This document shows positions 19,220 through 61,770 of a DNA stretch of 64,000 nucleotides, piece by piece. Positions within the stretch are counted from its first letter, which is position 1; each line of letters begins with the position of its first letter. The position numbers and the translations under genes are program-made. The notes under the pieces are model-generated. The model ran no database searches and had not been told where the DNA came from. It saw nothing but the letters and a program-made list of their open reading frames with translations. The DNA is from Naegleria gruberi. Its lineage: Eukaryota. The stretch lies in NCBI GenBank assembly GCA_000004985.1, contig GG738881.1, one strand, 5' to 3'.

Positions 19220-20809
19220 ATGAGCAACAACAAACGCTGGATACAATATACTCCCGATAATACTTCTAGTAGATCCCTTTCATTGCCTACTAATCCCTTG
19301 CAGATTTCTGTTAATAACAGCAGGAAGGTTAAAAAAGAGCAGAAACAAACAATTTTAAATTGTTCTTCATCATCAAACAATTTTATAATGCAGCCAAGCC
19401 TCGATAAGGTTTTAATTTCCATGTTAACGTACAAGGATGGTTCGTGGAAGCCGACAACACACAAATGGGAGTATCATCCTTCCGAATGTAAAGAAGTGAT
19501 TCATTGCTGTATTGATGAGCTGGGGACAAATAATAATCAAATTGTGAAAATTGGATTTGATTTGTGGAATTTTTATGATGTGGATGTAATTGCCTTCTTT
19601 AATATTGATGGACAAGAAATGAAAAAATCATTGTGTCCAATAGTACGTGCTAATGGACAGACTTTCAGGGCAACAGCTTTTTTTGAAGAAACAGATTGGC
19701 ATTCAATTTGTATAAAACAAAGCGATTTGGCTGAAGATCCTGACGATATTGATTTTGAAAAGTTAAATTCAGCAGGAAAAATTATAGTTAAGGTCTTTAA
19801 ATTTGCATTTGAAACAGTACTATCGGATTCGAATATAGAGTATGACCAAACCAATACGAAATTGAATGGAGTGAAATGTAAATTAAATAGTGATAAGGGT
19901 GAAATATCTGTTACTAAAGGAGAGAAAATTGAAAATGCCAATGTAACAGTACGAGGATATCCTGACTGTTCACAATTATTGAAAGTTTTTGAGATTAATT
20001 ATCATACTCCAGGAAAATATCAAATGTTAACATCAAATAAGAAGTTAAATGAAAACAGGAGCATGCCAACACCTGGTGGAAATAACATGTTTAGTTTGGC
20101 AACCACAAGAACTGCTCAGCAATCCAACCCAGGTACTCCAGGCTCAGGATCTCAGGCTGGCAGTTCCACTTCACATACTCCACAACCAGTTGTTTCAGAA
20201 CAACCAACCATCACACCTCTCATCGCCACTAATACAGTCACACAAGCAACTACCTCAACCATTCCTTCTACTCCTCTCACAGTAGCTACTGCTGCAATTA
20301 CATCACCAACACTTCAAACCTCCAATAGTCCAACACCAAGCAAGGATACTCCCTCAATGAAACAGGCTACACTTGACAAACTACAACCAAAGAGAAAAGA
20401 GATTGAGGTAATTGTACTTGACTCAGATGATGAAGATGATTTGGACAATTCAGAACAATCTGGTTGTGATTCGAAAGTTATTGAACCAGAACCAAAGAAG
20501 TTAAAACCCTCAACTAGCCAAACTCAAACTGTTCCAAGTCTCTTTAAACCACTGAAAAAGGATGTATCTATGGAAGAAGTTTGTGCCAAATACAGTTTGG
20601 TGGAAGTACAAACTATGACATGTGAACAACTAGAAGAATTTATTTCCAAGGCTTTAGGATCTAAAAAATACCAATTTGATCTTAGTATTTTTGAGATGAA
20701 TGGAATTGATGGAAATGTGTACATTACAAATTTTTCAGAACTTTCAGAGATGGGACTAGAAAAAGAATTGATACAAGAAATGGAGAAAATATTAAATATT
20801 CTGAAATAA
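19220..20809 (+). CDS. Ser/Thr/Pro-rich protein with a C-terminal SAM-like domain (529 aa).
   Basis: ATG with acaaaaaaaATG context. Central mucin-like stretch (TPGSGSQAGSSTSHTPQPVVSEQPTITPLIATNTVTQATTSTIPSTP...). C-terminal ~70 aa (EEVCAKYSLVEVQTMTCEQLEEFISKAL...FEMNGIDGNVYITNFSELSEMGL) fits a SAM-fold pattern. An acidic DSDDEDD tract precedes it. Confidence 0.5.
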   Translation: MSNNKRWIQYTPDNTSSRSLSLPTNPLQISVNNSRKVKKEQKQTILNCSSSSNNFIMQPSLDKVLISMLTYKDGSWKPTTHKWEYHPSECKEVIHCCIDELGTNNNQIVKIGFDLWNFYDVDVIAFFNIDGQEMKKSLCPIVRANGQTFRATAFFEETDWHSICIKQSDLAEDPDDIDFEKLNSAGKIIVKVFKFAFETVLSDSNIEYDQTNTKLNGVKCKLNSDKGEISVTKGEKIENANVTVRGYPDCSQLLKVFEINYHTPGKYQMLTSNKKLNENRSMPTPGGNNMFSLATTRTAQQSNPGTPGSGSQAGSSTSHTPQPVVSEQPTITPLIATNTVTQATTSTIPSTPLTVATAAITSPTLQTSNSPTPSKDTPSMKQATLDKLQPKRKEIEVIVLDSDDEDDLDNSEQSGCDSKVIEPEPKKLKPSTSQTQTVPSLFKPLKKDVSMEEVCAKYSLVEVQTMTCEQLEEFISKALGSKKYQFDLSIFEMNGIDGNVYITNFSELSEMGLEKELIQEMEKILNILK

Positions 20810-20890
20810 TTTCATGTTGTGGTCTAATTGGTCTAACATTATATCAAAATGATAAAAGAAAATGATCTATTCTTAAAAATTCTGAATAAT

Positions 20891-21802
20891 TTATCGTTCA
20901 TAAGTCATCATTTCATATCCATATTGTGGGAATTTAGCATCCTTTCCTACTGATCTATGAGAAATATTTCCCTGTCTTGTTTGTGGGGCAGAATATGTCT
21001 TTGTTTTAGGTTGATTAAAATCGGATGGCTTTTTGACAGTTCCTGTAGTTTGTTTTTCCCAAGCTTGATCTTGAAGCAATTCTTCTTGTGCCTTCCTTGA
21101 ATTCCAATCATTCATTTCCAAATAAACTTTAGCTTCATCGATTGTAATATTATGATTTTTGGAGAAGGTTGTAACCATCAACTGACGTTGTCTTTCAGTT
21201 TGAATTCTTGTTTCTTCCAAATCATAATTCTTTTTAATTAAACTTGGATCACATTTTGGAATGAGAAGAGTTGTTCCTTCATATAAATCCAAATCATCAC
21301 ACAATAAAGTATTCAGCATTTTGATATCCTCTTCGTGACAGTGATAACGTAATGCTAACTTCATCAATGTATCAGTGTGTCTATTCAATTGATGGACAAA
21401 ATATGGCTTTTCTTCTTCAACTGTTGTTTGTGCATTTTGTTGTTGTGGTTGTTGAGGAATTTGTTGTTGAGCAGTTGTTTGATTCTGATAATAGTACATT
21501 TGTTGTTGTTGAGGAGTAACATACATTACATTTCCATGAGCTGATACAGGATACATGACATTCGTATGTTGTGGCATGATATAAATTGGTGTAATATTGG
21601 ATTGTTGGCGTGGGCCATTCGTTAAATTAATAATAGGCTGTTGAATATATTGTGGTTGAATTGATGATGATGATGAGATTAAATACTCTGGAATGGTCGG
21701 ATACATTGAATCCGTTTGATAGTTATTATGCTCGGCAAGTGGTGGTGCGCTAGCTGGTTTGCTTCCGTGTTGATCAACATTGGTGGTTTGTACCTTGACC
21801 AT
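20891..21802 (-). CDS. LysM-domain protein (LYSMD-like) with Gln-rich N-terminal region and a UBA-like C-terminus (303 aa).
   Basis: ATG at 21802. YFVHQLNRHTDTLMKLALRYHCHEEDIKMLNTLLCDDLDLYEGTTLLIP matches the LysM consensus (Y.V..GDTL..IA.kY....eeL...N.l.....l..Gq.L.IP). Poly-Q/QQP tract upstream. C-terminal ...ITIDEAKVYLEMNDWNSRKAQEEL is UBA-like. Confidence 0.55.
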   Translation of the reverse strand: MVKVQTTNVDQHGSKPASAPPLAEHNNYQTDSMYPTIPEYLISSSSSIQPQYIQQPIINLTNGPRQQSNITPIYIMPQHTNVMYPVSAHGNVMYVTPQQQQMYYYQNQTTAQQQIPQQPQQQNAQTTVEEEKPYFVHQLNRHTDTLMKLALRYHCHEEDIKMLNTLLCDDLDLYEGTTLLIPKCDPSLIKKNYDLEETRIQTERQRQLMVTTFSKNHNITIDEAKVYLEMNDWNSRKAQEELLQDQAWEKQTTGTVKKPSDFNQPKTKTYSAPQTRQGNISHRSVGKDAKFPQYGYEMMTYER

Positions 21803-22158
21803 TTTTCAAAGGTTTGTTTTGTTTGTTATTTACAAGAGAGGTTTGGAGAGTTTTTTTTTATTTTTAAAATTTAAAAGTTGATGGAGAATTTAAGCTAAGT
21901 CTCAATTTGTAATGACTTCTAAATACCTTCGATTTGAAAACTCCAAATTGGAGTTGAAACAGAATGATTCCGAATGAATTTTGTTAATGTTGCTGGATTG
22001 GTGAATTTAAATTTTGAAAGATTAAAAAAAATGAAATGCATTACATGTACTTGGTGTATAAAGAGTTGTTGTTTGAAAGTAATGGTTTCGAATACAATTT
22101 AAAATTAAACGAAAGTTGCGATTGACGAAACTCAAAAAATGGAAATGGAAAGAAAAAA

Positions 22159-23778
22159 ATGTCTCAACTCAATAAGAAGAGAAAACAAGAAGATTTATCA
22201 TCCACTGATGGAAATGATGAAAATATTCAAGAAATTTTATTTAATGAAATGACATCTGTCACTGATCAATTAATTTCTCTTTGTAAAAAAGTGAAATTGG
22301 CTGATCATCGCTGTTTTTTCAATAATGGTGTAATGGTTAATGAATTTTTTGGAAAAGTTTATTCATTGCTTGAGGAGATGAATATTCATAGAAGAAAGGT
22401 TTCTTCAGATCAATTCAATTCGGATACTTTATTTCACATTTACCAATTCTTAGATTTTACAGATCTATTGCAAAACTGTCAACCTGTTTCAAAACTGTGG
22501 AAAGAATCATTAAATAGAGTCAAATTTCATGTTAGTTTGGGTTCAACAAATAGAAATGGAAAATTCAATAATGAAAATCTCATCCACTTACTAAATGGAC
22601 CATTTATCCAAAATGTTACTTCATTAAGATTGGGTAAAGCTCAACTTGATGCTTTTAAAACTCTTTCAACTTGTAAGAATTTGGATAATTTGATCAAATT
22701 GGATTTGAGATTTAATAACATGGCAAGTCAACGTGTGACATATTTAACGAAATGCTCAATGAAGAATTTGACAGAATTGAGCTTGCATGATGTGCAAAAT
22801 TTTACAGAAAATGAAGCAAAAGAGTTGTTCAATAGTACCTTCATGTCTAATGTTAAAAAATTCAACATTGTTCAAGAAAGTTATTCAGATGAATTGTTTG
22901 AAGCCATGTCAAATTCAAAGCATTTTAGTCAACTCACTCATTTAGAATTGCGGCAAATAGCTCAAGGTACTAAATCTGAACTGAAACTATTGTTGAAAGA
23001 TATGAGTAATTTGGAATATTTGGGACTTAGAAATCATAGATTGACCAATTTTTCAAATTTATTCACTAGTGGGAATTTATATAATATTACACATCTGGAT
23101 CTCAGCTATTGCAGAATGTTGAATAGTGAATTTGCGAATTTGATTGTTTCTCCAAAATTACCAAAGCTCATTAAGCTAAAAGCTCAGGACTTTAATTGGG
23201 GAAATTTGGAGTTTTTTGACAAGAAGAATGAAAACTCCCAAGTTGCTCATTGTCCTCCAAATTCACAGAGTTCCCTCACTGACTTGGATTTTCAATCTTG
23301 TTTTATTACACCATTTCCAACACTCACCCATCATTGTCCAAATTTAAACAGACTTTCACTGCGTAATTCAAGAAAATGCCCAAATAAGGAGCTATTAAGG
23401 AGTTCTTATATTACATTTTTGAGTGCTCCTTCCTTGTGTAATTTGGAATTTTTGGATATTTCTGGATTGGAATGTTTGGAATCTTTGTTTGAAATTATTT
23501 TCACATTACCATTCTATCCGAATTTGAGGGAATTGAAATGCTCACCTAGTAGAGAAGGTGGAGAAACATTGCAAGCTAATCTCATTTCAAATTGCAGTCA
23601 CCTGAAGAATTTGAGGATATTGGATGCTTATGGAGTTTTTGCATCAAACGAATGTCTGAAATCTTTGCAAACTAATCCAACTTTTTCCAATTTGAGTATT
23701 GTTGTTTTACATGGAAATTTAGACCTATTACGTTATTGGGAAAATAACAAATATGCTGAAGAGTTAGAGGAGGATTGA
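22159..23778 (+). CDS. F-box / LRR protein (539 aa).
   Basis: aaaaaaATG start. F-box-like LFHIYQFLDFTDLLQNCQPVSKLWKESL. Remainder is LRR-type (LTELSLHDVQNF, LTHLELRQIAQGT, LEYLGLRNHRLTNFSNL, LRILDAYGVF). Confidence 0.7.
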   Translation: MSQLNKKRKQEDLSSTDGNDENIQEILFNEMTSVTDQLISLCKKVKLADHRCFFNNGVMVNEFFGKVYSLLEEMNIHRRKVSSDQFNSDTLFHIYQFLDFTDLLQNCQPVSKLWKESLNRVKFHVSLGSTNRNGKFNNENLIHLLNGPFIQNVTSLRLGKAQLDAFKTLSTCKNLDNLIKLDLRFNNMASQRVTYLTKCSMKNLTELSLHDVQNFTENEAKELFNSTFMSNVKKFNIVQESYSDELFEAMSNSKHFSQLTHLELRQIAQGTKSELKLLLKDMSNLEYLGLRNHRLTNFSNLFTSGNLYNITHLDLSYCRMLNSEFANLIVSPKLPKLIKLKAQDFNWGNLEFFDKKNENSQVAHCPPNSQSSLTDLDFQSCFITPFPTLTHHCPNLNRLSLRNSRKCPNKELLRSSYITFLSAPSLCNLEFLDISGLECLESLFEIIFTLPFYPNLRELKCSPSREGGETLQANLISNCSHLKNLRILDAYGVFASNECLKSLQTNPTFSNLSIVVLHGNLDLLRYWENNKYAEELEED

Positions 23779-24071: not shown

Positions 24072-25653
24072 ATGGGAAATAACAAGACAAGGGAAAATGC
24101 ACAAATATCGAAAATAACTTCCAATTCTACTTCTTCTTCTGGTGGAGTTGGACGTTTCGGTAGTCAATCGGCAGCAGCATCATCATCTGCATCGAATGGA
24201 TTTTTGCGAAATGAAAGTGCTTCATCTTCGTTTATAGTTTCGAATAGAGAATTGAATAGTGTAATAGTCGGTTCGAAAATGGATTCAGAAATTTATTTGT
24301 ACGGTTATACGAGTACTTTATATTATGATGGTATCAATCCTGGGTGTGGTGTGACAAAGATCATTGATAATATCAATTCGGATGATGTTATTCGTTCTAG
24401 GGATTTGTGTGTTCAATCAGAAAATAATGGATTGAGTGCTGTTAAATTAATTCTAAAGCATACTTTGGTTTATAAGGTCATTTCTGGAAGATTACATTCA
24501 CATATTATTACAGCTGATGGCAGAATACTGAGTTTTGGGTCGAATAATCATGGTCAATTAGGTAGGTTAACAATAGCTTTGAAATTCATTTAAATTTCGT
24601 TGAAACTGATTGGCAATGCAGGTTGTGGAGTTGTTGGAAGTTTGAAAGCATCATATGGTATAGTGAGGGCAACTGGAGAAATTACCAATCATTTCATTAT
24701 TGATGGAGCAGCAGGTGGTTATCATTCTCTATTTATCACATCTGAAAATAAGGTGTTTTCTGTTGGAGGAAACTCTAGTAGACAATTGGGTGTAATAACA
24801 ACTGATTCGACAGCAACTGCCACTGCTATTGAAATTCCAGAGCAATCATTTGATGGAAGAAAGGTTGTGGCATGTTCAGCTGGTGATTCTCACAGTTGTT
24901 TCTTAACTAGTTGTGGAAATATCTATTTTGCTGGATCTAATTCTAATGGTGCATGTGCAGGGAATTCTGGAAATAATAGACCAATATTATTGGTGAATGA
25001 AATTCTTGCAAATGAATTTCCAATTCAAATATCATGTGGCTATGACAATACAATGATTTTGTGTCAGAGTGGAAATATATATGGTGTTGGATGTAATAGT
25101 TGTGGACAATTGGCAAGTAAGTAATTGTAATGATTCAATAATTATTGAATGAGTTATTCCAGCTGATGATGGTGATCATACCAACTTTGGAGATATTCGA
25201 AAGATTTATAACGGAGTTAAAGGAATTGTGTGGATTGGATCTGGATACTTTTGCTCTGCTGTTTGTGCAGAGGATGAATGTTATTTTGCTCCCTCACAAA
25301 CTACCTATTCTAAACTGAGTAAGATTAATCCAAATGCTATTGCAGTCGGTGTTGGTGATTCTATCATTTTTGCAACTAATGAGATTAATCAAAATGGAAA
25401 ATTTGGTAAATTGTACGTCATGAGTTCAGGTAAGGCCACAGATATTACAGGAGATTTCTCAATTGATTCAGTCTCATCAAAAATTGAGTTTAGTGGTCAA
25501 AGAGATGTCTATATTGCATATGTCTCAAAATTTGATCCTGCCTTTATGATTTCTCATCATTTCCTTCATTTGGAGAAGATTTTGGATTTTGTCAAGGGAA
25601 ATTCCTCACAATATTCTGGCTCAACTGTATTTTCTGATATTCAAATTCAATAG
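24072..25653 (+). CDS. RCC1-repeat (regulator of chromosome condensation-like) protein, 3 exons: 24072-24562, 24623-25116, 25163-25653.
   Basis: RCC1 blades ...ADGRILSFGSNNHGQLG | (GTAGGT...tgcag, 60 nt) | CGVVGSLKAS...GGNSSRQLGV...AGSNSNGACAG...VGCNSCGQLA | (GTAAGT...ttccag, 46 nt) | TDDGDHTNFGDI.... Exon phases are consistent; the three track ORFs are the three exons. Confidence 0.7.
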
Positions 25654-29068: not shown

Positions 29069-30472
29069 TTATTGGTGAATGAGATCAGAGATGGCTCTTT
29101 GAATATCTCCTTCATACTTATTCAATAAGGTAATATTGAGAATGTGATTGGTGAAACCCATTTGATTCAATAATTTCAATTCTTTTTGATATTTGTGTGG
29201 AATGGTTGTTTTCACAACTGGTTCTTCTTCTTCTTCAGGAATTGATTCAATAATTGGATCTTGATTTTCAAGAAGTTGATTGGAAACTTGTTGAGCTTGT
29301 TGATTGACTGATTCTGTTTCTTCTTGAGCAGCAACTGTTTCTTGTTGAACTTGTTCAGAAACTGATTCAGTTGGTTGATCTTCAATTAAATTGGAGAGAA
29401 GCAATGAAGTTGTAATATTTGGAGTATTTTCGGCAACAATTTCTTGTTCCTTCAATTGTTCTTGAATTGATTCTTCTTCTTTTGGTTGAGAAACAACAGC
29501 TGCAATTGGAGAGGTTTCAATTGGTTTCTCCTCTTGTTTCTTTTCCTGAGTTTATGATGGTTGACTCTTTTGTTCTTCTTCTCTCATTTCCTTCATTCTT
29601 TGAAGTAATAATTCTCTGAATGATTGAGGTGTAGAAGTAGTTTCTTTCTTTTCTTTCTTTGGTTCCTCTTTCTTTGGTTGTTGTTGAGCTTCATTACTTG
29701 TTGGAATTCCCAAAAGATCAGCAAGATTAATTTCAATTCTTCTCACTTTTGGTTTTGTTTGAGGAGTGGAAGCAGAAACTTGTGGGAAGAATGATTGTTT
29801 TGGTTGAGTTGACTTGTCATTTGAAAATGCAGATCTAAAAGCATTTTCAATCATATTTTCCCAAGATTGTTCTGATTGTTGTTGAGGAACTTGTTTCTTT
29901 TGAGATTCAACTCTTGGTTGTTGTAATTGAGCAAATAAACATGATGGTTGTGAAATTCTATTGAAAGTAGTATGTTGAGCTGGTTTGATTGATTTCTTTT
30001 CGCAAATAATCTTAGTCAATTTGCCCTTCATTAATTTCAACAAGAAATGGAAATCTCTTAAATTGGTCAATGAAACCAAATCATCTTCATCATCAACATA
30101 ATGTAATTCATATTGTCTCATATCGATGGAATGTTCTCTCAATACTCTATCAAATAATTCGAAACTTCCCTCATGATTAGAATCAATTTCAAATCTCAAT
30201 ACATTTGAAGCACTATTCAAATTGTGATTGAACTTTCCTTCAAAAATATAAACCTTGAATGGAACATTTCTTTCAACTTGTCTTGTTTGTGGAGAAATCA
30301 TATATGAAAGTGGAATTTTTTGTACATTATTTGCGAAATGTTGAGTTGGGATATATTGATAATCATTGAATGATGAAGTTTCTCTCAAATTTGGATAAGA
30401 AACTTGTCTTGGAATAGTTTGTTGAGGTTGGAAAGCAGCTGCAGTAGAAACTGGAATGTGAAAGAAACTCAT
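29069..30472 (-). CDS. PB1 + UBA domain protein (p62/SQSTM1- or NBR1-like selective autophagy receptor), interrupted by one in-frame TAA at 29552-29554.
   Basis: ATG at 30472. PB1 with OPCA motif: VPFKVYIFEGKF...YELHYVDDEDDLVSLTNLRDFHFLLKLMKG. Long K/E/Q-rich linker. C-terminal UBA: HKYQKELKLLNQMGFTNHILNITLLNKYEGDIQRAISDLIHQ*. The two track ORFs are in the same frame, separated only by the TAA. Confidence 0.65.
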
Positions 30473-32708: not shown

Positions 32709-33011
32709 ATTTGAAATTGATTACTACATTCAAGTCTAACTCCATTTAATCAAACTTGTATTGAGAAATACCCAACTATTTAATATTAATTGATTTATAA
32801 CATTCACCAATTGTATTTCATAAATCTGAAGTGATTTTTGGTGTTGCCATATTACAACGAATTACAAAGTTCATTACCAAACCAAAAAAATGCCAATAAG
32901 TTCATTATCAATCCTGCCCTGAATTGTGGAGTATTGTCTACACGTTTCTAGAACCATCGGATCGATCACTATTTGAAAGAGTGAATCTCTTATTTCGAAG
33001 TATGTCTCGAT

Positions 33012-34526
33012 GTGGAAAGGAGAGAAATCAGAGAAATATTTCAACTCCACAACAAGTATCTGTTGCATCCATTACACGAAGAACCTGTAGCAGAGGAAAA
33101 AATTCAACTTGTTGAAGGGAAGCTTGGACAAAAGATACCTTTTTATTTGAGAGAGTTTATTAAATTATCGGATGGTAGAACTAATGATGACGGAAATGGT
33201 GACACTTCAAATGATATTTCTTCATTACATTGGAATAATTTCTTGAATAGATTTGATGAATGGAAAATAGGGGAGAGAGGATTGATACTTGCTTCTAAGC
33301 AATATGCAAACTTGTGGATTGACTGGGAAAATGGAAAATTGAGTCTTGATTCTGCAAATTCATGGAATGAAGGACCATTTACTATTATGAACTGGTTAAA
33401 GATGCCATCTGATACGATTAATCCATTTGATATGAACAATTTATGTAATGAATCGAATAGAATGGATTTGAAAACAATTTTAAGAGGTTACGGCTCTCTA
33501 TTTGAATTATTACCAGAAAATCTTCGAAATGACAGAGATATTGTTAAATCTGCTTTGGTTTCTTCTGGTTTAGCCTTTAATTTTGTGAGCAAAGAGATTG
33601 CAGAGGACCGTGAGATGGTAGAATGGTATTTCGAAAATGGAAACACTGATTTTAGATATATTTCTGATAAATTTAGAAAGGACAAGGGAATGATAATGAA
33701 ATATTCCACTAAGTGGTCAGATGCTGATATATCCCTTTTACAAGACAAGGAAGTGGCAATGCATTACTGTAGAAAGAATCAAATTCCAAATTAAATTATA
33801 TGTGAGGACCTGATTATTGAAGCTGCCAAATACGGACAAGAAAATTACTTTACAAAAGATCTATTTAGTAATGAACTTGTTTTCAAGCTACTCGATTATA
33901 TAATCCCAAAAGAAAGAGGAAACTTTTCGAGAGTTATTAAGGAAAATGAGCAAAAACTAGACGAAAAAGTATTGAAAAGAATTGCAGAATTGAATCCAAT
34001 CTTTGCCCTGCACAATCTGTCCCACGATGATGATGACGATGATATAATTCTAACAAAAGATCGTGTACTGACCTATATTAATGAAATTGAGGATGAAACT
34101 GTAAAAATTGACAGCTTACCATACAAATGGAGAAGAGACAGAGACGTGGCAAAAGCAGCCCTTTTACGAAACTTTGGAAATTATAATTATCTCGATCAAG
34201 AATTAATGACAGATGCAGAGTTTTTAAACCCAATACTCGAGATTTCAAAAGTCCCAATTTACCTTCTATTCACGCGCGATAGTCAATTTGCAAAGTTTAT
34301 CTGTTCCAATAAGGAATGTTTAAGGAAAATGTTAAAACGAAACCCTTCATTGCTCTGTTATGTTCCATGTGAGTTGGATGAGGAATTTGTTAATTCATTG
34401 GATTTTTATTCGTGTAATAGTACCATTGCTGAAATACTTTACAATTCCAAGTATGAAATTTATTGTAAAGTAGTGAAAAGGTTAAACTGTGCGAGAACGA
34501 ATCTTGACGAAAGGGGTTTAAATTAA
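33012..34526 (+). CDS. DUF4116-type repeat protein, paralogous to 1877-3496. The two track ORFs are one reading frame broken by a single TAA at 33792-33794. 5' end unresolved.
   Basis: Repeats LRNDRDIVKSALVSSGLAFNFVSKEIAEDREMV, FRKDKGMIMKYS, LQDKEVAMHYCRKNQIPN*IICEDLIIEAAKYGQENYF, WRRDRDVAKAALLRNFGNYNYLDQELMTDAEFLNPILEIS, LRKMLKRNPSLLCYV. The frame stays open from 33795 straight into the second ORF. The track's start at 33012 is GTG, and the first in-frame ATG is far downstream. Confidence 0.55.
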
Positions 34527-34692
34527 TGGAAACTAAACAAGGACAATTCGAAACACAACATGTTATTATCATGTATTATAAATACATCAGCGTGCTACAT
34601 CCAGATCAAGGGAGATTATACCTTCCATCTAATGACTTACCATAAAAGAAACAAATTAAATTTCGTTTAGGATAACAAAGTTTCCTTAAAAA

Positions 34693-37231
34693 ATGTCATC
34701 TTTACACCATCAATCCCCAGCTCAAGACGATAACTCTGCTCATAATCGAATAAATGTCTTGTTTGACACTTCTCTCGTAGTGTTTAATCACAACGAAGAT
34801 ACAGTAGACGAAACATCGGAAGAAATTAATATTTTCTTATGGATAAAGACGAAACTTCTCTCCACCATCCGAATGATAGTTTTCGACTATCAAGACAAGG
34901 AAAGATTAGAATTATTCAATAACAGACAAGAAATGCTCTCCAAACGTTTACCACTTTCAGGAATTTTTCATTTAATAATTCTCATTCTCCTGTCAATGAT
35001 AATCGAAAGGTCTGAAGGAGAAGAATCCATTTACTTGTTTCTTATATTGACTGTCATTGAATTCTTTGGAAATATTGGAGTAATTGTCTTGATTTTGAAA
35101 ATGGAATTGCCAATTCTTAATACGGAAATTTGTAATTATTGTAGATTAGTTGCAACTTGTATGATTCGATTGATTTTACAGATTTATTATGGACCATTGT
35201 TTCCTGTGTGGATTTTACAGGTTTATTCAATGATTATTGTGTTGAATGCTTATTATTTCAATAGGGGACCAGCTGTGATTAATTGTTTGATTGTTATTGT
35301 GTTGGGAGCTGTTTCGACTGTACTGAGTCATGTTATTCATTTCGAATATTTTGGAGATAGTTCAATAGAATTTGGACATGAAAGAGTTTGTCATCCGTGT
35401 CGACATTTTGAATATATTCATGAGAGCCAAGTTTCCAATCTTATTAAGGTCATTACATTGCAATCAGTTCTTTGTGGAATAGGTCTCTTATTTTCAGATG
35501 TTTCCATGGAACAGGATGAGAGAAATATTTCACAACAAGTAGAAATTGTCAAGGGAAGAATTTTGAATGAGGAAAAGACCAAATTTATTGGCCATTTGAG
35601 TCATGAAACAAGAAATCCACTCATGGGAAGTATGTTTTTAAATTGAATCGAATATATTTAATTAGCAATAATGATTAGTTATGGGAGCTGCTCAAATTCT
35701 GAAATTTGATTTGGAACAGCAAATGAAACGGAAGAATGTTGCTCTGCAGCATAAATCAATTGTTGAGAAAGTGGATGATATTTACAATAGCTCTGTATTG
35801 TTGTTGCAAATATTGTCAACTTCATTGCAGATTAGTTCTTCAGAGATGGGTGGAGTTCACTTGCAGGGAAGTGAATTTAACATGTTGGAGCTGGTAGAAA
35901 CGATTTGCTCAGTGTTTAGTTCAATTGCTGTGGATAGAGGCATTTCTTTGCAATCTTTTATTGATATTGTGAATATTCCAGATATGATTTATGGAGATAA
36001 TACAAGAGTTTCACAAATATTGATGAATTTTGTTTCGAATAGTTTGAAATATACTCCTAATAAGGGGTCAGTTACTGTAAAATGCACTGTTTCAACTCAA
36101 GAAGAGTTGAACGAGTTTAGAATTGATAAGAAGAAAACTAGTGAACTCATGATGTGTTATCCTGCCGAAAAGTTAGATGTGAATGATTTGATATTTATAA
36201 CCTTTACATGTGCTGATAGTGGATGTGGAATGAATTCCAATCAAATTATCAACCTTTTTTCGAGTAATCAACAGGCCAATCCTTCCATGAGGCCTACTTC
36301 TAGGGCTAGACGAACAGGAAATGATCAATTTATTGAGAGTCATGGGTTTGGATTGAAAATCTCAAAGCATTTGATTGATTTAATGAATGGTAAGATTCAT
36401 ATTAGTAGTGAAATCGGAAAGGGGACAACTATTAAGATTATCATTCCTTTCTTCAAACAGGATAAGAAAGGTATGATTCTCGAGGAACAAATTGAACAAT
36501 TGAGAAATATTTCAAAAGAGAAGGAACTATCCCAAGTTACTGTATCTTTGCTGGATCAAAATAGGATATTAATTAAATATTTGGAATATCTACTTCCAAA
36601 TAATGTAATGATAATCGAGTCAGATGTTGAAAGGGAAGAATCTATGCAAGTGAAAACGATTGATAGAAATTGCTCAGTTTCTCTATTGTCAAAAGGTGAC
36701 ACTACCTCATTGAATTATGAAACTCTATTCCTAGCAAGACCTTTCAAGGTGAAAGATATAATTTCAGTATTGATTGAAAGCATGGCTGGAGATTTTGAAA
36801 TCAACAGTTCAGAAACAGGTTCAGAAATTACAAAGATTCGATCGAGTCGTTCTCTTGACTCATTCACATGCAATATTCTTGTGGTGGATGATAATTCAAT
36901 TAATAGAAAGGTTGTGCACAGATTGTTACAAATTATTGGATATGAGAACATTGATTTTGCTGTGGATGGTCTGCAAGCATTCGAGAAGTTCAAATTGTCC
37001 AACTTCCAGTTTGTATTGATGGATCTAGAAATGCCCAACATGAATGGAAAGGAATCTTGCGAATTAATGAGAAAGTTTGAAATGGAAACCAAACGAAATA
37101 GGGCTGAAATTTTTGCAGTAACTGGAGACATGACACAATCTATGGCAACTTGTGCTGATTTTGATAATATTCTATTCAAGCCAATTTCCAAAGATTCCCT
37201 CAGTTTGACTCTCAATAAGAACACTGACTAA
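34693..37231 (+). CDS. Membrane-bound hybrid sensor histidine kinase (TM sensor region, HisKA, HATPase_c, REC receiver), 2 exons: 34693-35629 and 35679-37231.
   Basis: aaaaATG start. N-terminal ~230 aa has 5-6 hydrophobic helices. H-box FIGHLSHETRNPLMG | (GTATGT...gattag, 49-nt intron, phase 1) | IMGAAQILKF. N-box region (ILMNFVSNSLKYTPNKGSV), G-box GFGLKISKHLIDLMNGKIHISSEIGKGTTIKIIIPF. Receiver ILVVDDNSINRKVVHRLLQIIGYENIDFAVDGLQAFEKF...FVLMDLEMPNMNGKES...IFAVTGDM...FKPISKDSL. Confidence 0.8.
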
Positions 37232-37250
37232 TTTATGTACATATTGAGGT

Positions 37251-39450
37251 TTATTCATCGTGATGGAAAAAGTCATCATCAAATTCGGTGGCGCCAAAAA
37301 CGTCTCTATCAGAATCTGGGAACTCGAAAACATTATCAATATTTGGAGTTTCTGATAATTGGTTTTGGGTATTGCTGTTACTATTTGTAACACTTGGTGT
37401 ATTGGAATCGAGAATTGTTGGTGTTGAAGTTCCTGTTGCTGAATTATTGGTAACTGGAGTACTATTTGAGATTTGTCTATTCATGTCAGTATTATTAACG
37501 TTCATACTATTTGATGTGGTTGATTGCTCATCGTTCAATAAAGATCGTAACTTTTCTTCCACATCTCTACCAACTTTAACTAGAGGGGATTTCAGGAAAT
37601 TTTGAATGGTTTGTTTGGCTTGAGGGGTGGTTGTGGAAACTGGTGCTGGAGAACTCAGCAAATGAGTTATCATTTGAGAAATTTCAGTTCCAGCAGGTCC
37701 ATTAGTGTTAAACATGTTAGGCATATTGGAGTTTGAATCAGTTTCATTTCCAAGTCCAAGATTAACATTCATTTGTTGTTGCTTTTGTGGAGAGAGTGTA
37801 TTAGTACTGTTAAAGTTTGTTTGTTGTGGGTTTGTTGGTTGTTGTTGTTGTTGTCTGTACATGTTTTGTTGTTGTTGAGCAAAATTCAACACTGCATTAT
37901 TATTCATATTTTGTGGAATCATACCATTATTGGTTTGTTGAAAATTATTGATTCCAAGTACTGCTGCATTTTGAAGGTTAATACCAAAATTACCAGCGCC
38001 ATTAACGCCTGGATACACAAATGCTCCATTGTTTGTACTCATACCATTATTGACTTGAATGGTATTTGGTTGATTTGGAATCATTGTGAATGCATTTTGA
38101 CTGGTAACTGGTGAAGATGCAGAATTGTAAGGTGATTGAATATTTCCAGACATAATGCCAATACCTCCCATTGGTTGTTGTACACTAATCATTGAACCAC
38201 CTGTTGGTGTGGATGGCATTTGATTAACAGTGTTATTTTGAACAAGTAAACCTTGTTGTTGCATCATGCTTGCTTGTTCTTTAACCAGTTGATTGAATTG
38301 TGAAATTTGTTCCTTGATCAATAACCTAGTATTGTAAGCTTTGAAAAATTCAGGATTTTGTTGTTCTAATTTGCACCACATCAAGTTAATAAAGGCTCGT
38401 TCAATATTCTCGTATTTCTTACATAAAAAATCCATTGTCTCTTCTTTTGAAAGATAAAGCTTTAGGCATTGCTCAATCAATTGTTGTACCAATTTGATTT
38501 GCTCAACAGAGAATCTTCTCATTCCGTTGGCAGACATACCTGATTGTGTATTTGTTGTTGTATTGGTATTTGATGACAAAACTCCTCCACTATTATTACT
38601 AAGAGGTGTAGTTGATCGTTGCTGTGCTGACATGGTAATTGTATTTGGAACAGTACCACCAGTCATTTGACTCATAGGAGTTGATGGATTTCCCATGTTT
38701 GTCATATTATTCATGTTATTCATAGCATTTACATTGGACATATTCATATTGGCCATGTTTGTCATATTCATGTTATTAATATTCATCGTGTTGGCATCCA
38801 TACCATTGGTAAAACCTCCCATCATTTGTTGTTCGTTGCTAATCATACCATTACCATTAGTTTGTTGCACAATGGTTGTATTATTTGGCATTACTTGCTT
38901 TCCAGGATTTCTTAGATTATTATTGTTGTTTGGGGTGGTTAGTTGTTGTTGTAGGAATTGTAATAAATAGTTACTAGGGTCATTATTATTGTTCATGTTT
39001 TGCATTGGTATATTATTGTTTTGTACGTTCATGTTCATATTCATATTCATAGCTTGGCCATTGGCATTGTTGAGAGGTGTTTGTCCGTTCATCAAGTTAT
39101 TATTATTATTTTGATTCATAGGTTGCTATTGTTATTTTGTTGTTTTACAGTGGTTGGATGATGACATAGTCCACCAAGGAGATGAAATAGATTAATAAAT
39201 GTTAAATAACACTATTACTATTTGAAATACTTACTTGAAGAGCCCTGAACGTGTTGAAGAGTTGTTGGTTGTTTGCCATATTGTTCATGTTATTTGGCAT
39301 TGGATTTGCAACAACTGCTGGATTCATACCCATTTGCATATTTCTATTAACATTGTTGTTATTATTCATGAATGCATTGAAAAGGTGTTGTTGTTGTGGA
39401 TTGAGAACATTGACAATATCGTTGATTGCTTGTGGTGGAATATTACTCAT
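37251..39450 (-). CDS. Asn/Gln-rich low-complexity protein with a conserved central helical domain, 2 exons: 39450-39235 and 39125-37251 (about 695 aa).
   Basis: ATG at 39450. Exon 1 ends ...LFNTFRALQ | GTAAGT; a 109-nt intron ends aacaatag; exon 2 begins QPMNQNNNNNLMNGQ.... Extreme N/Q/M composition (NMNMNMNVQNNN, QQQQQPTNPQQTN). Non-repetitive core ...FSVEQIKLVQQLIEQCLKLYLSKEETMDFLCKKYENIERAFINLMWCKLEQQNPEFFKAYNTRLLIKEQISQFNQLVKEQ. Confidence 0.65.
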
Positions 39451-43546: not shown

Positions 43547-44146
43547 TTCTTAATAAACATTAAACCTATTTTGTGGCTTTCTTTATTGGGTTTTAGTTAT
43601 TGATAAAATCAATTTTGTAAACCATGTGGAGCCACGTGGAAGCAACGAAAGAGAAAGTTGGATGATGGCACTTCAACCAAGTCTGGAAATTCAGCTGCCT
43701 ATGTCCATTAACTTCATTCCAATTATTGCATTTAACAAATCAAATTGTTTGCTTAATAAATCTATAAAACGGCAGTTGGATATTAAAGAGATAAAACGTT
43801 GATGATCCATTCTACAGAATTTAATAATTGCCTTAATAGTAGCATTCCATCATCAAACCTTGAGCTTCAATCCACAATGAAACTTTCAATTCTTCCTTCC
43901 ACACACTCTCAATATTTTCTGCTCGTTCGGACCTTTTTAACAAATTAATAAATTCATCCATCAAAAAAAAATCCAAAACTTGCGCTTCGCATTCATTCAC
44001 CACTTGCTTTTTTTTTTCTGAAATTTAAAGTGACGGTTGGAGAAGGTTACAAGGGCCTTGCAATTTTAAAGTTCAGATAATCTTCTGTAATAGAAGTAAT
44101 TATTGTAGATTATTGATTTTTTATTGAAGAAGAATAAGGAGATCAA

Positions 44147-44923
44147 ATGATCGGATCATCGGCTATGCTTTATGGAAGCGTGGAGGAACATTGCTTTTCA
44201 AAACTACAACAACAACAAGATCAAGTTGATAATTTATTTAATTTATATAAAGGATCGAAGAGGTCTTCTTCGTTTCCTTCGAACAATTGTCTAAAACGAA
44301 AGTTGGATTCAATGGAAGAGGATCAAAAGACGTGTTGTGATGAATTAGTAGATGAAGAAGCATGTTGTTGTTCGACAAGGAAGAATTATACTAGTAGATC
44401 ATCAACGTTAGCACAATTTGAAGAAAATGATTTGTTTAGAGAAGTAAAGAGAGTTAAAACGAGTTTAACTCTGTCACATTTACAATTATCAACGTCCTCA
44501 TCATCATCATCACTGGTTGATTCGATGGAACAGGATGAAGATGTTGTTAAAGAAAATGTGCAAAGCAAAATAATTCCATGCTACAGTATTTTGAAAACCC
44601 CTAAATCACCCCCTAAATCTAACACTGAAAAGAGTTTATCCAATATAATGATAAAAGAAATTTGGAGGAGAAAACTTCAATCATCCCTAATGAGTCAGTC
44701 AACTGGAGTGTCACAATTACCAAGAACTGAAATTAACTTACATAACGAGTACGATTTTGATGAACCTGAGGAACGAGCAGTAATGCCAAATAGTATACCA
44801 CGAGAAGAGCTAATGAGGAGGCTGAAGACGAGGATTGATTCTGCATCAAATGGAAGGCAGCACCGTTTTGATGATCCTCATTCAACAGGAATCAGTGACG
44901 AGTTTGATATGGCAGATGATTAA
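44147..44923 (+). CDS. Hypothetical acidic protein (258 aa), Ser-rich, no recognised domain.
   Basis: ORF with ATG at 44147. Acidic tracts (SDEFDMADD C-terminus, EDQKTCCDELVDEEACCCS). Confidence 0.35.
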   Translation: MIGSSAMLYGSVEEHCFSKLQQQQDQVDNLFNLYKGSKRSSSFPSNNCLKRKLDSMEEDQKTCCDELVDEEACCCSTRKNYTSRSSTLAQFEENDLFREVKRVKTSLTLSHLQLSTSSSSSSLVDSMEQDEDVVKENVQSKIIPCYSILKTPKSPPKSNTEKSLSNIMIKEIWRRKLQSSLMSQSTGVSQLPRTEINLHNEYDFDEPEERAVMPNSIPREELMRRLKTRIDSASNGRQHRFDDPHSTGISDEFDMADD

Positions 44924-44938
44924 TTTATTGTAAATAAA

Positions 44939-46609
44939 CTAGTGATTTAAAAATCTATTCAACCTTTTCATGGAATGTTCAAATGCTAAACTGTCCAAGT
45001 GAAATAAATTTGAAGCAATAGCTTCGTGATGTCTTTGATGAGGAAGTTTACCACTGTCAAGTGAAAGACCTGACATGAAATAAACTGCCAAGTAAGGAGC
45101 CATAACAAGGGAGAGTGTTGTAGTTTTGAGACGTGAGAGCATGAGAGAAATGGCTGCAGTGGTACCAACATGTAACCATCCATGAGTTTGTCTTCCTTCT
45201 GTCAACATTCGTTCAATATCCAATACTTCACCCAACACAGTTGGAAGGAAAATGAAAAATGGAATAGATGAAAGCAGTCTGGTATTGTACAAGAAGTAGG
45301 ATGATCTAAACATTAAACCAAATGTTGCAAATATTCCCAATTTCTTTGCTGATTCAACACAAGACCATAATTTCATTGAGTTTTCCTCCTCTCTCAAAAA
45401 GATATATTCAGTTGTTTTACCCTTTGAAATCATTAAACCAATAGAACTCAATTTTTTAACATCTGCATAAGGACTATTACTATACATATTTTGCAACATG
45501 TTAATGAATGGTAAATTTTGATGCAGTGTCAGGGTTTTAAAAAGGTTTGGATTAGAGTACATTCTTGAAATTACTAGGGCTGAAATCATTTCATTTTCTC
45601 TTTCTCTTGTTTCAACAATTAGTCTGAAAGTATCCAATCTGTGCATTAAAGATTCATGAGAAATATTATCGGCTGAAACAACATCTAGCAAACGTCTTGC
45701 CTTAGCTTGAATAGCAGCACTTCCTTCATAGAGAATAGAATTGAATATCGTTCCTAATGTTCCGTTTGTACAAATTTCCTTAACAATCTGGGTATATTTT
45801 TCATTATTTCCATCTCCAATAGTAATTTCATCTGAGAGATCCTTTCCACTTTTCAAGACATTTAGATGCAAATCCTTATTTTCAGATAATGAAATCAAAC
45901 TTTCCAAACATGCATAATGTGAGCTTTCCAAAATAAATCCCAAATTCCACTTTAAATCTGAAGATGGACAGGAACCCATAAATGTACTTCTATTCAAGCT
46001 AATTAACATTGTTGATCTAAGTATTGGTAAAATCCTTTCCACAACATTTTCATCCACACCATTGTTCTTAATACTTGCATTCAATTCATTACTTTTAGCT
46101 TTGATTTGTAAGAGTAGAGTTTCCAATTCCTCATAAATTGAAATAAACTTTCTGTCCCGAGCAGTGGTGACCATTACATTTTCATTGGTGGATGTGCCAT
46201 CTCCTGGTAAAAGACCATACATTCCAGGAGTGGATGGTCCATCATCATATTCATCATCTCTATCATTCATTTCTGCTTCCATAAGACGTTTTTCCCATTG
46301 TTTCATTCTGTTTTGAACCAAATCGTGTAAGTCATCAACAATTTCCGATTGTTGTTTTCGGGATGATGTAATTACTTGTTGGAGAAATGAAAAGGCTGGA
46401 ATAATAGAAAGACCGAACATTAAAACAGCCTGTTTAAAACTAAATGATGAAGAAGCACCTGTTGAATTATTACTCTTTGAATATTGTCTGTATTCTCCTG
46501 ATTGATCATTGGAATTTCGGAATTTATAATTACTAAAGATCTTTAATCTTGTTGTTGGTGATGATGATTTAGCAATATGTTGTGCTGATTGAACAATTCT
46601 CTTTAACAT
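44939..46609 (-). CDS. Hypothetical protein (about 556 aa) with predicted TM/hydrophobic segments near the N-terminus and in the C-terminal third.
   Basis: The track's M at 46618 is TTG; the first ATG is at 46609 (MLKRIVQSAQH...). No motif recognised. Confidence 0.4.
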   Translation of the reverse strand: MLKRIVQSAQHIAKSSSPTTRLKIFSNYKFRNSNDQSGEYRQYSKSNNSTGASSSFSFKQAVLMFGLSIIPAFSFLQQVITSSRKQQSEIVDDLHDLVQNRMKQWEKRLMEAEMNDRDDEYDDGPSTPGMYGLLPGDGTSTNENVMVTTARDRKFISIYEELETLLLQIKAKSNELNASIKNNGVDENVVERILPILRSTMLISLNRSTFMGSCPSSDLKWNLGFILESSHYACLESLISLSENKDLHLNVLKSGKDLSDEITIGDGNNEKYTQIVKEICTNGTLGTIFNSILYEGSAAIQAKARRLLDVVSADNISHESLMHRLDTFRLIVETRERENEMISALVISRMYSNPNLFKTLTLHQNLPFINMLQNMYSNSPYADVKKLSSIGLMISKGKTTEYIFLREEENSMKLWSCVESAKKLGIFATFGLMFRSSYFLYNTRLLSSIPFFIFLPTVLGEVLDIERMLTEGRQTHGWLHVGTTAAISLMLSRLKTTTLSLVMAPYLAVYFMSGLSLDSGKLPHQRHHEAIASNLFHLDSLAFEHSMKRLNRFLNH

Positions 46610-46627
46610 TTTTTTCAAAGTGCTTTA

Positions 46628-48889
46628 TTAGTTCATTTCCAAAGACAAACCTGGATGCACTCTTGTACCAGCTTGATATTTAATTCTCTTGGCAATGACA
46701 ACATTAATAACACAACCAATATGCATTAGAATACCAATAAAGAAACAAGTAATACCTGTAATTAATAATTCCCAAGAAATACCTTTACACACAGCACCAT
46801 CTGTTGCTGTAATATAATTAGCCATATATGTACAACCAGCAACTTCTGCGCCAATTGTTTTAAGTAAGGCATGTGCAAAAGTCAAAACAAAATTGAGTGT
46901 TTCTTGTGGGAATGTGGCAATGAAATTTTGAACATTAGTTGTAAGGAGATCAATTTGAGAAAGGATATTTGATGTCAAGGTACCAAATGAACTGACCAAA
47001 GTCTTAGCAGATGCAACATCAACAATTAAAGCATCCATATTGGCATTAATAATGTTCAAGGTTTGATTGTAGGAGGCAATTTCTGCCAAGGCTGCCAGTT
47101 GAGTATTGTGTTGTAATCTGGTTGCATTCTTGAGTGTTTCACCTTCAACTTTGTCAGAGTTTGAGGCAAGTCCGGAAGGATCAAATGTTTCAAAATTATC
47201 ATACGTATAGGTAGCTGATATTTTGGCAGTGGTGAATGCATTGAGAGCATTAAGAGCAGCATCAAAATCTGTTGCATTGAAACCGGAAAAACCAGAAAGA
47301 TTATTCAATGATGAAGTACCATTTGCAAGTTTGGCCCTAGCATCAGTGAGGGTACTTGTATAGTCAACATTGATAGAGCCAATAGAAGATGTGGTCATGG
47401 AATTCTTTGCACTTTCGGTAACAGAAGAAATGTTAAAAACTGAAGCTTGGGTGCTGAATGAATCAGTTACAGAAACGAGCATACTGTTAATACCCAAAGC
47501 AGAGAATGCATCAGTACCAAATACAACATCAATCAAAGATTGACCATCTTTACAGGTAGACATGGTTGTTAACATTACAGAAACGTTTTGGAATTTGATT
47601 CCACCAGTTCCAGTGAGCATACTTGACAAAGCTTGATCACCGATAGATCCAACAGTTTTTGGACCATTTGTGCATACTTCATTGATAAGCATAAATGCTG
47701 GAACTTGAATACCTGCCAAAAGAATGAAAATCCAAGCAGTAATAAAGGCCAATGTAGTTGTAATATGTACACACCAAGTCTTTCTGAAAATAATACCAAT
47801 AAATACAAAAATGTAGATTATTCCACACCAACAGAAGAGGACAATGGAAAGTGAAACTCTAATATTTTCAGCAAGCTTGGAATAAGTCTTAGCGTCATTA
47901 ACTGTTTGATTGTTTAGGTAGGTGTCAACTGAGGATTGAATTGAAGCAATAGGTTGTTGAATACTTCCCAAAGCGCTACTGAGTGAAGGACCAAATTGGC
48001 TTGAAATTGTGTCATTGATAAGACTTTTAACTGAACTAATCTTGGTCTTGATGGTATCTTTTCCAGAATCAATCGATGATTTGGCAGATGTAATTGCTTG
48101 CAAGCCAGATGTAATGGAAGGAGAAACAGTTGATTTGATATCAGGAATTTCACTAGAGGCTGGAACTCCACTAAGTTTTGGACTAGCTCTCAAAGTGTCG
48201 ATACCACTTCTAATATTTACAACTTCCTTGTTGATATTTTCAATGGTGGATGAGTTGAAGGTGCCTAGTTGTGTGATTGTGTTTCCAACAAGAGTTGAAA
48301 TTGTATCTAGAGGTGCAGTTGCATTCAGAGCCTTATTTAAAAGTGGATCGATCGCATCTGGGAGTCCATTTAATTGAGTGGTAATAATGGCTGGGAGATT
48401 ACCAACATTTTTCAGGGAACCAGTGACACTGCTAGTAAATGTCAAAGTTTCATCAATCATGACTCTCACGTGTGTTGAACCTTGGGCAGAGAAGATCACA
48501 CCAATAATTCCCAATAGAATAAAGCAACAATAGAGCACAGCCAAGACAATAGCTGGAGCAATAAGGTGCTTTCTCTTGTAGGCCTCAGATGATGTTGGTA
48601 CATTTGAACCACAGAACCCACAACATCTACAACAACAGAATATCATTATTGCAATATAACCAATCACACCAAACAGAATGGGGATCACAAGGAAAATTGC
48701 TAAGAAAATAGCATACTCTATATATTTAGCTCCATCTAGAACCTCCTCCGAAGACGTTGGGAGGGCTGTCCTCACTGTCTTAACTTGCCCCATAGTAAAG
48801 GCAATATTCTGGGCATTTACTGTTGTAAGGATGATAAGGAATACAAATATTATGTACAAGGAAAATCTAGGGACAATTTGAAACGACAT
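46628..48889 (-). CDS. Prominin-like pentaspan membrane glycoprotein (753 aa).
   Basis: ATG at 48889. Signal peptide MSFQIVPRFSLYIIFVFLIILTTVNAQ. TM1 followed by a Cys cluster (IMIFCCCRCCGFCG). TM2, a ~250-aa Ser/Thr/N-glycosite-rich loop, TM3, TM4, a second large loop, TM5, short tail. Topology and the post-TM1 Cys cluster match prominins. Confidence 0.5.
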   Translation of the reverse strand: MSFQIVPRFSLYIIFVFLIILTTVNAQNIAFTMGQVKTVRTALPTSSEEVLDGAKYIEYAIFLAIFLVIPILFGVIGYIAIMIFCCCRCCGFCGSNVPTSSEAYKRKHLIAPAIVLAVLYCCFILLGIIGVIFSAQGSTHVRVMIDETLTFTSSVTGSLKNVGNLPAIITTQLNGLPDAIDPLLNKALNATAPLDTISTLVGNTITQLGTFNSSTIENINKEVVNIRSGIDTLRASPKLSGVPASSEIPDIKSTVSPSITSGLQAITSAKSSIDSGKDTIKTKISSVKSLINDTISSQFGPSLSSALGSIQQPIASIQSSVDTYLNNQTVNDAKTYSKLAENIRVSLSIVLFCWCGIIYIFVFIGIIFRKTWCVHITTTLAFITAWIFILLAGIQVPAFMLINEVCTNGPKTVGSIGDQALSSMLTGTGGIKFQNVSVMLTTMSTCKDGQSLIDVVFGTDAFSALGINSMLVSVTDSFSTQASVFNISSVTESAKNSMTTSSIGSINVDYTSTLTDARAKLANGTSSLNNLSGFSGFNATDFDAALNALNAFTTAKISATYTYDNFETFDPSGLASNSDKVEGETLKNATRLQHNTQLAALAEIASYNQTLNIINANMDALIVDVASAKTLVSSFGTLTSNILSQIDLLTTNVQNFIATFPQETLNFVLTFAHALLKTIGAEVAGCTYMANYITATDGAVCKGISWELLITGITCFFIGILMHIGCVINVVIAKRIKYQAGTRVHPGLSLEMN

Positions 48890-49610
48890 TCTCTCTAAAT
48901 TAGAAGGAGGATTTTTTGTAAAGAAAGGATTGATACGAGAGTATTAAGGTCGTTTTTTTCTGTTAAGAAATATTTTGAAAAACGTCTTTTGTTCTTTGTG
49001 TGCCATCACAACTCATCGCTTCAATAACAATTTCTGATGGAGAGAAACAGTTAATGTAAGGAAGAGCGGGAATTTTCGGTTGAAACAAGTTCATTTGTTG
49101 GCGGGATTCAAGTGGAATCAACTAATTTGGATTAGTCATCCAAATAAATCCATAATAAGGCAAAAAATAAGGTCCTTAATGTAGAATGCAAGACTTTGAC
49201 TTGTACTCCACATGCCATGTAGTAGTATTTTGCACTCTATAGAAACTTTTTGTATGCCTCCTTGTGCATGTTGTCAAGCAGTAACCTAACGGCAATGTCT
49301 ATCAAAATTTGTGTTGAAATCATTTCATTAATGATGGGATGTGAGGGAGAGGAATCTTACTAGAAATTCTCGGATTGTATTAATTGGGGGTTTCTGTTGC
49401 TTGTATAGGTAGTGGCAAATAATTAAGAGATACTAAAGGAAATAACCTAATCTCTTCCTTATCCAGATTCGATTTCCAACACTATTTCATGATAGTGAAT
49501 AATTAAAAAGTTGATGTAATTCCATTCCTGGTGTTATTATTCTGTGCAATCTTTGCATTATTCAAATCCCATATAATATTTACATTAATTAATTATTTGA
49601 TGAAAATTAT

Positions 49611-54890: not shown

Positions 54891-54997
54891 ACTCATTCCA
54901 ATCCATTGTACTTTTCCTTAAAATCATTATTCTTGTCCTATTGTTATAAAGAGTCATTTTGATGGATCATTAAGTGGCATCAAATAATTTTAAAAAA

Positions 54998-57804: not shown

Positions 57805-57919
57805 TAAAATGAAGCAAATTAAAACAAAATGTTTTTTATTCGAAACAAAATCGCAATCAAGCTAAAAATCTAATGGTCACTCTTAACTGGCCAGAAGATG
57901 TCCATAAAAATTTCCAAAT

Positions 57920-61714: not shown

Positions 61715-61770
61715 GTTGAAGACTTGTCAAGGTCTTTTTTTCTGTCTTGCTGATTTGACAAGTCTTCAAC
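61715..61770. repeat. Perfect 16-bp inverted repeat (GTTGAAGACTTGTCAA ... TTGACAAGTCTTCAAC) with a 24-nt T-rich loop; potential stem-loop.
   Basis: Direct reading of 61715-61730 against the reverse complement of 61755-61770. Lies in a 2.2-kb stretch with no long ORFs. Confidence 0.6.

Follow-up and report, generated by a model that had tools for sequence, protein, structure and literature searches.

Translation through a codon that normally terminates is known from several systems. Ciliates read UAR as Gln, and programmed readthrough takes place at the UAG-CAR-YYA signal of tobamoviruses and in metazoan genes carrying UGA-CUAG. In Blastocrithidia nonstop UAA stands for Glu (PMC12153298). Broken frames are also found in unprocessed pseudogenes of repeat or F-box-type families that turn over by birth and death. 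Here we analysed a stretch of 64,000 nucleotides from Naegleria gruberi NEG-M (contig GG738881.1 of assembly GCA_000004985.1; hereafter the window), in which a gene with DUF4116 repeats on the plus strand is interrupted by a TAA codon at 33792-33794. A preliminary description of this DNA had proposed base-call errors, a strain carrying nonsense alleles or readthrough as the source of the stop.

We consider the locus, with a probability of roughly 0.86, to be an unprocessed (duplicated) pseudogene of an N. gruberi-specific DUF4116-repeat gene with an F-box-like N-terminus and a weak SUKH-like region. It shows homology to an intact paralog, disabling lesions, a ratio of nonsynonymous to synonymous divergence (omega) near 1 and tolerance of frameshifting indels. 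The copy appears to carry three disabling lesions, namely a +1 break in a C run, a second +1 break and a G-to-T change that turned GAA into TAA; given the two frameshifts and the TAA, no full-length protein can be made from it. Function was probably lost around or before the split from a closely related strain, probably through the 5' frameshifts, and the TAA would be a later, secondary hit in the NEG-M lineage, terminating any translation that gets that far, just as TAA ends most genes here. The appropriate annotation for the locus is that of a pseudogene, and no special translational mechanism is required for the TAA.

The interrupted frame and its intact paralog

The TAA at 33792-33794 is the only internal stop in the frame that joins the open reading frame (ORF) 33012-33794 to ORF 33972-34526 (translation of 33012-34529), and this frame is otherwise open from 33003 to 34526 on the plus strand, where it ends at a terminator TAA (34524-34526). 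The translation around the internal stop reads HYCRKNQIPN, stop, IICEDLIIEAAKYGQ, with the upstream side given as DKEVAMHYCRKNQIPN. At the base composition of the window a stop is expected by chance about every 13 codons, and the probability of 243 more open codons after the TAA is about 6e-9. Pfam DUF4116 matches flank the TAA (E = 1.3e-13 upstream and 1.1e-5 downstream), and the joined product matches DUF4116 (PF13475; E = 8e-19, with a score of 67.4 bits where the cut-off is 24.9) in five stretches, none of which spans the TAA. The lone in-frame TAA first described at this position, with its coordinates and sequence, was thus confirmed by translation, by Pfam matches on both sides and by the paralog discussed below. 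However, its placement inside a DUF4116 repeat unit had been a call by eye and could not be reproduced. A 72-amino-acid segment centred on the TAA gave no Pfam match, and a local repeat hidden Markov model, for which the eight canonical DUF4116 units encoded at 1877-3496 were used, recognised residues 160-229 and 389-462 of the frame product as units, the TAA being residue 261. Because residue 261 lies outside these units, the TAA falls in a degenerate stretch between detectable DUF4116 units.

The intact counterpart, P0002, an N. gruberi protein of 534 amino acids from another scaffold, covers 97% of the reconstructed product at 51% identity. Since the window, too, comes from N. gruberi (NEG-M), P0002 is a paralog. 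A tblastn search of P0002 against the locus (E = 2e-164) returned two blocks in different frames, corresponding to residues 10-38 and 39-530. The second block lies at about 33003-34481 and has the TAA inside it, and the alignment is colinear across the stop. Upstream of the TAA, the middle of the gene with its first DUF4116 units and a weak SMI1/KNR4-like region (33003-33791, plus strand) is colinear with P0002 residues 39-309; downstream of it, what is left of the old coding frame (33795-34526, plus strand), which includes two further DUF4116 units that can be detected and the original terminator TAA at 34524-34526, is colinear with residues 310-530. The SMI1_KNR4 match in 33003-33791 had E = 1.3e-3, below the curated cut-off, which makes the SUKH assignment a sub-threshold one.

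The preliminary description had treated the TAA as the single lesion of an otherwise good gene, overlooking two frame breaks within the first 40 codons. The ancestral start codon and the first nine codons, MPISSLSIL (32890-32916, plus strand), match the N-terminus of the paralog, MQDLSILIPPELW, by eye, and the ATG at 32890, the only one upstream, lies in a third frame, distinct from those of the two aligned blocks. Reading on from it gives MPISSLSILP and then a TGA at 32920-32922. The first break, ten codons after the ATG, splits the start codon from the next segment at 32917-32919 (plus strand), either by one extra base in the CCC run or by a loss of 2 nt from CCC-CCT. Removal of one C from this run gives SILPELWSIVYTFL, colinear with ILIPPELWRTVYSFL of the paralog, and the longer reading after the same deletion, MPISSLSILPELWSIVYTFL, is colinear with MQDLSILIPPELWRTVYSFL. 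The N-terminal segment that follows, PELWSIVYTFLEPSDRSLFERVNLLFRS (32918-33001, plus strand), lies in the +1 frame (PELWSIVYTFL...), where no ATG occurs after its upstream stop at 32897-32899. P0002 residues 10-38 (PELWRTVYSFLNTPYRPHFERVNLLFRSL) align to 32918-33004 with 66% identity (E = 7e-8), in a frame that differs from that of the rest. The segment is F-box-like by eye, a resemblance that consists only of the pattern LPxELW...L; it received no Pfam call, and the F-box profiles PF00646 and PF12937 found no match at E <= 1 in either the N-terminal segment or P0002.

The second break, about 27 codons further on and again +1, is at 33002 (plus strand), where a surplus base stands between Ser (32999-33001) and Cys (33003-33005), or 2 nt were lost from the Leu codon of the paralog. 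The window reads NLLFRS, then the single base a, then CLDVERREIREIFQ at this site, and the paralog reads NLLFRSLCLEEERREINEIFQ; no homopolymer is involved. Neither 5' frame switch is an intron, because each falls within one codon of the colinear paralog alignment. At the second break a consensus-like donor, GTATGT (33000-33005), is created, with frame-restoring AGs 25 and 34 nt downstream (33000-33033). Introns were also considered for the frame switches and rejected on length: the frame-restoring GT..AG intervals at the second break measure only 25 and 34 nt, as against 49-60 nt for real introns. We read the GTATGT as a coincidence, the intervals being far shorter than the real introns of the window.

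Among the protein-search matches of the reconstructed product there was no deposited N. gruberi protein from the DUF4116 locus, and the locus therefore seems to be without a gene model. The neighbouring RCC1-like gene has a homolog in N. lovaniensis (40% identity), and within 8 kb on either side of that homolog no relative of the DUF4116 gene was found. The gene family seems to be specific to the N. gruberi lineage, and the absent synteny in N. lovaniensis is consistent with a young, lineage-specific family of fast turnover, in which dead copies are expected.

Divergence from a sister strain

A relative of NEG-M, its sister strain, is represented in the metagenome ENA ERZ929261 (run ERR1078381) and could be aligned to the window over 20.2 kb with 97.8-99.3% identity; no paper mentioning this project was found in a literature search. 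Four of its contigs were compared, corresponding to window positions 19852-22469 (L005), 33533-37316 (L001), 44054-49613 (L004) and 54103-62358 (L003). L001 (3,847 nt) is 97.9% identical to 33533-37316 and encodes P0001, the best protein match. At position 33792 it has G where the window has T, so that the premature TAA at 33792-33794 (plus strand) corresponds to GAA (Glu) in the relative. Since a 98%-identical relative has GAA, the TAA arose as a derived state in the lineage of NEG-M.

We then counted synonymous (Sd) and nonsynonymous (Nd) differences between NEG-M and the relative strain. In 12 neighbouring ORF segments (4,906 codons) Sd was 71 and Nd 42, giving dS 0.0233, dN 0.0036 and omega 0.156, and there was no difference in stops. 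In the DUF4116 gene (325 codons, about three-quarters of the compared stretch lying downstream of the TAA) Sd was 4.5 and Nd 16.5, giving dS 0.0242, dN 0.0213 and omega 0.88, and TAA/GAA was its only stop difference. The gene departs clearly from its neighbours (Fisher p = 4.7e-4), and TAA/GAA is the sole stop difference in all 5,231 compared codons. In dS the gene agrees with the region, and its dN has climbed to that level, as is expected if there was no constraint throughout the divergence of the strains. About 5.8% of random substitutions in the frame of the DUF4116 gene create a stop, and neutral divergence of roughly 1-2% over 1.6 kb would be expected to yield about one nonsense hit. Indels gave a corresponding picture. 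All five of those inside intact ORFs are multiples of three, with 21 more located outside ORFs, and the only ORF indel that is not a multiple of three is a 1-nt deletion of the relative at 34513, in the DUF4116 gene, where it shifts the last codons. Because of this frameshifting deletion the copy of the relative is also decaying. Of the explanations first offered, a strain with nonsense alleles came closest, in that the relative has GAA and the TAA is derived in NEG-M, but what sets the locus apart is a whole gene evolving as a neutral pseudogene (omega 0.88 versus 0.156) and not one odd codon.

Several points weigh against the pseudogene reading. The three lesions were read from the assembled sequence, and the contig of the relative starts at 33533, so both frame breaks are known from the NEG-M assembly alone. 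An omega near 1 could, moreover, arise from a functional gene that evolves fast; the frameshifting indel of the relative and the 5' breaks argue against such a gene. Finally, 22 substitutions separate NEG-M from the relative strain in the gene, and five of them (33780, 33790, 33792, 33804 and 33806) cluster in 27 nt around the TAA, where they could mark a locally poor stretch of assembly. The meaning of this cluster is uncertain: a conversion tract may underlie it, or it may fall in the loop under least constraint or in a part of one assembly that is of poor quality.

On an alternative view, the organism has an intact gene, and both frame breaks as well as the TAA are consensus errors in a poorly covered Sanger stretch. 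The three lesions do lie within 900 bp, they and the five differences in 27 nt near the TAA could belong to one low-quality region, and the first frame break is in a short C run. We nevertheless regard this as unlikely. The neutral signal comes from substitutions across the whole shared 1 kb and not from the lesions (omega 0.88 versus 0.156, p = 4.7e-4), the copy of the relative has its own frameshifting indel, and the second frame break lies outside any homopolymer; it seems, too, that no model was made here by the annotators. The local error rate is low, as no spurious stop or frameshift occurs in the 4,906 neighbouring codons. The NEG-M assembly is listed as Sanger-based in Table 1 of PMC9928731, and 13 ORFs of the window agree letter for letter with proteins deposited for NEG-M (EFC42129-42140 and EFC42222-42232 series), all from one scaffold of 379,849 bp. 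These observations also count against the systematic base-call errors that had been proposed on the strength of two TAA stops in 64 kb. From the codon usage of the window genes, TAA should make up 0.45-0.50 of nonsense hits that arise at random, and the probability that two of two are TAA is 0.2-0.25; the suggested check for TAA enrichment, when run on the window, was thus uninformative as an error signature. The three lesions probably lie in the DNA and not in the assembly.

NEG-M might instead be heterozygous, with the assembler having taken a broken copy while an intact, functional allele resides on the other haplotype. Naegleria is described as mainly a heterozygous diploid in PMC9928731, which also reports heterozygosity for N. 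gruberi, and the TAA is young, being missing from a strain about 2% diverged. Yet the dN of the gene equals the regional dS over the full divergence of both strains, the copy of the relative is frameshifted as well, and no second allelic scaffold was present among the protein-search matches. Constraint was lost on both lineages, a pattern that a maintained functional allele would not predict, and we hold a null allele on one haplotype to be very unlikely. As a pseudogene, the DUF4116 locus would not be expressed as protein.

A contig of the relative strain that covers the 5' part of the locus was found neither through protein matches nor among JGI metagenome contigs. The first 58 nt of L001 (L001:1-58) do not match the window, and their translation in another frame, DRGLIDDIINRDGSMIKYIPE, looks like a DUF4116 unit. 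This end is either a chimera of the metagenome assembly between DUF4116 genes or a rearrangement that truncates the copy of the relative.

The PB1-UBA gene, readthrough and splicing

We also scanned the window for lone stops flanked on either side by 80 or more open codons. Besides the TAA of the DUF4116 gene, this gave the TAA at 29552-29554 on the minus strand and a TAA at 24591. On the minus strand, ORF 30472-29555 (306 amino acids, with the PB1 region) ends at the TAA 29554-29552, beyond which the frame runs on over some 160 codons and reaches a UBA domain. P0016, the deposited model (456 amino acids), agrees exactly with the window only when 33 nt, 29565-29533 on the minus strand, are removed as an intron: GTCAACCATCATAAACTCAGGAAAAGAAACAAG. 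This 33-nt 'intron', GTCAAC..ACAAG, contains the TAA, lacks a consensus donor and does not resemble the two real introns of the window, both of which are longer. The paralogs P0017 and P0018, from another scaffold, keep the 11 codons as SQQSQTQEKKQ, with Gln at the position of the stop. Because they keep these codons with Gln, the PB1-UBA gene has undergone a real CAA-to-TAA change, and the lone in-frame TAA already reported for it is real. The 33-nt intron of P0016 is probably an annotation device hiding a nonsense mutation. With one lesion only, the PB1-UBA gene could be dead, truncated or rescued.

Two genes in 64 kb with one in-frame TAA followed by homologous, domain-bearing sequence naturally raise the possibility of programmed TAA readthrough or of partial reassignment of TAA, with both genes translated through the stop. 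The aligned residues in relatives are moreover Glu and Gln, for which TAA stands in variant codes already known. However, TAA ends 12 of the 19 long ORFs, and their 32.8 kb contain no internal TAA; only two real lone in-frame TAAs occur in the 64 kb. The stop of the DUF4116 gene is not conserved in the close relative, which has GAA, or in the paralog, which has a sense codon. Its TAA-A context is shared by 6 of 18 ordinary terminators, three of them being TAA-ATT as here, and no downstream RNA structure is apparent, the 109 nt from the TAA folding with z = 0.14 versus shuffles. Furthermore, the sequence 3' of the stop evolves neutrally, the frame is already broken twice upstream, and a search of the literature turned up no readthrough reported for Naegleria. 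The readthrough raised in the preliminary description therefore fails on the unconserved stop, the ordinary context, the lack of a fold and the two upstream breaks, and we assign translation through the stop next to no probability.

The third lone TAA, at 24591, is accounted for by splicing. It lies in a 60-nt intron, GTAGGT..GCAG, of an RCC1-like gene (24562-24621, plus strand), and the spliced product reads GSNNHGQLGCGVVGS. A second short intron, GTATGT..TTAG, of 49 nt is found at 35630-35678 (plus strand), and its removal yields an ORF of 829 amino acids. Short introns of 49 nt (35630-35678) and 60 nt (24562-24621) thus exist here, and an unrecognised one might remove the TAA of the DUF4116 gene, as the public annotation assumes for the PB1-UBA gene. 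Indeed, 35 in-frame GT..AG intervals span the TAA, the shortest being 54 nt. None of the 35, however, has the GTATGT or GTAGGT (GTAKGT, where K is G or T) donor of the two real introns, all of them would delete codons aligned to L001 and P0002, gapless or nearly so across the TAA, and splicing would leave both 5' frame breaks unrepaired. The earlier statement that no intron removes the TAA is borne out by these intervals, and the chance that splicing does so is negligible. A bolder proposal is nonsense-triggered 'intronization', in which N. gruberi may splice out very short exonic segments that have gained a stop. Its candidates would be the 33-nt GTCAAC..ACAAG of the PB1-UBA gene, the 54-nt interval at the TAA of the DUF4116 gene and the GTATGT at the second frame break. 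If it were true, freshly damaged genes would be partly rescued and new introns born, but we rate it as highly improbable.

Neighbouring genes and known systems

The 49-nt intron at 35630-35678 bears on a further gene model. The deposited EFC42138 (317 amino acids, 34693-35646) and a 516-amino-acid ORF (35681-37231) together form one gene at 34693-37231 on the plus strand. The counterpart of the latter in the relative strain, of 518 amino acids, has HATPase_c and Response_reg Pfam matches, and the 49-nt splice rebuilds an apparent histidine-kinase H-box motif, SHETRNPLMGIMGAAQIL (an H-box by eye). The reference annotation appears to split a hybrid histidine kinase at 35630-35678. Elsewhere on the plus strand, 1877-3496 encodes a protein with eight DUF4116 matches (E = 1.3e-51), 3679-4989 an F-box protein, and 22159-23778 a protein with LRR_4 above the Pfam cut-off and F-box below it. 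These three genes suggest a local concentration of adaptor-type genes in the window.

An in-frame stop in the N. gruberi reference need not be an error or a case of recoding; it can mark genuine decay. Such cases are treated inconsistently by the reference annotation in this region, with apparently no model at the DUF4116 locus, a dubious 33-nt intron in the PB1-UBA gene and a histidine kinase split at a real 49-nt intron. The sister-strain comparison also provides a small, clean estimate of regional constraint, with dS about 0.023 and omega about 0.16.

Among known systems, the annotation micro-introns that hide stops, such as that of P0016, resemble the DUF4116 locus in the lone TAA within homologous coding sequence of the same assembly. 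They differ in that no such model exists for the DUF4116 gene, the 5' breaks of which are not bridgeable in that way. With programmed readthrough the locus shares a single in-frame stop followed by a long open frame with recognisable domains, whereas here the TAA-A is a normal terminator context, the stop is unconserved, no structure follows it and the downstream frame is unconstrained. As in the stop reassignment of Blastocrithidia nonstop and ciliates, TAA aligns with Glu in the DUF4116 gene and with Gln in the PB1-UBA gene. In contrast to those codes, TAA serves here as the principal terminator, at the end of 12 of 19 long ORFs, and does not occur inside 32.8 kb of neighbouring ORFs. In an AT-rich genome, a single step leads to a stop most often by way of GAA-to-TAA and CAA-to-TAA. 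From the unprocessed pseudogenes of fast-turnover repeat or F-box-type families, which arise by birth and death, the locus shows no essential difference. It shares with them homology to a paralog over the full length, a preserved context between normal genes, two frameshifts and one nonsense change, dN close to dS and to the regional neutral rate, and the tolerance of frameshifting indels, as a young copy whose frames are still almost fully open.

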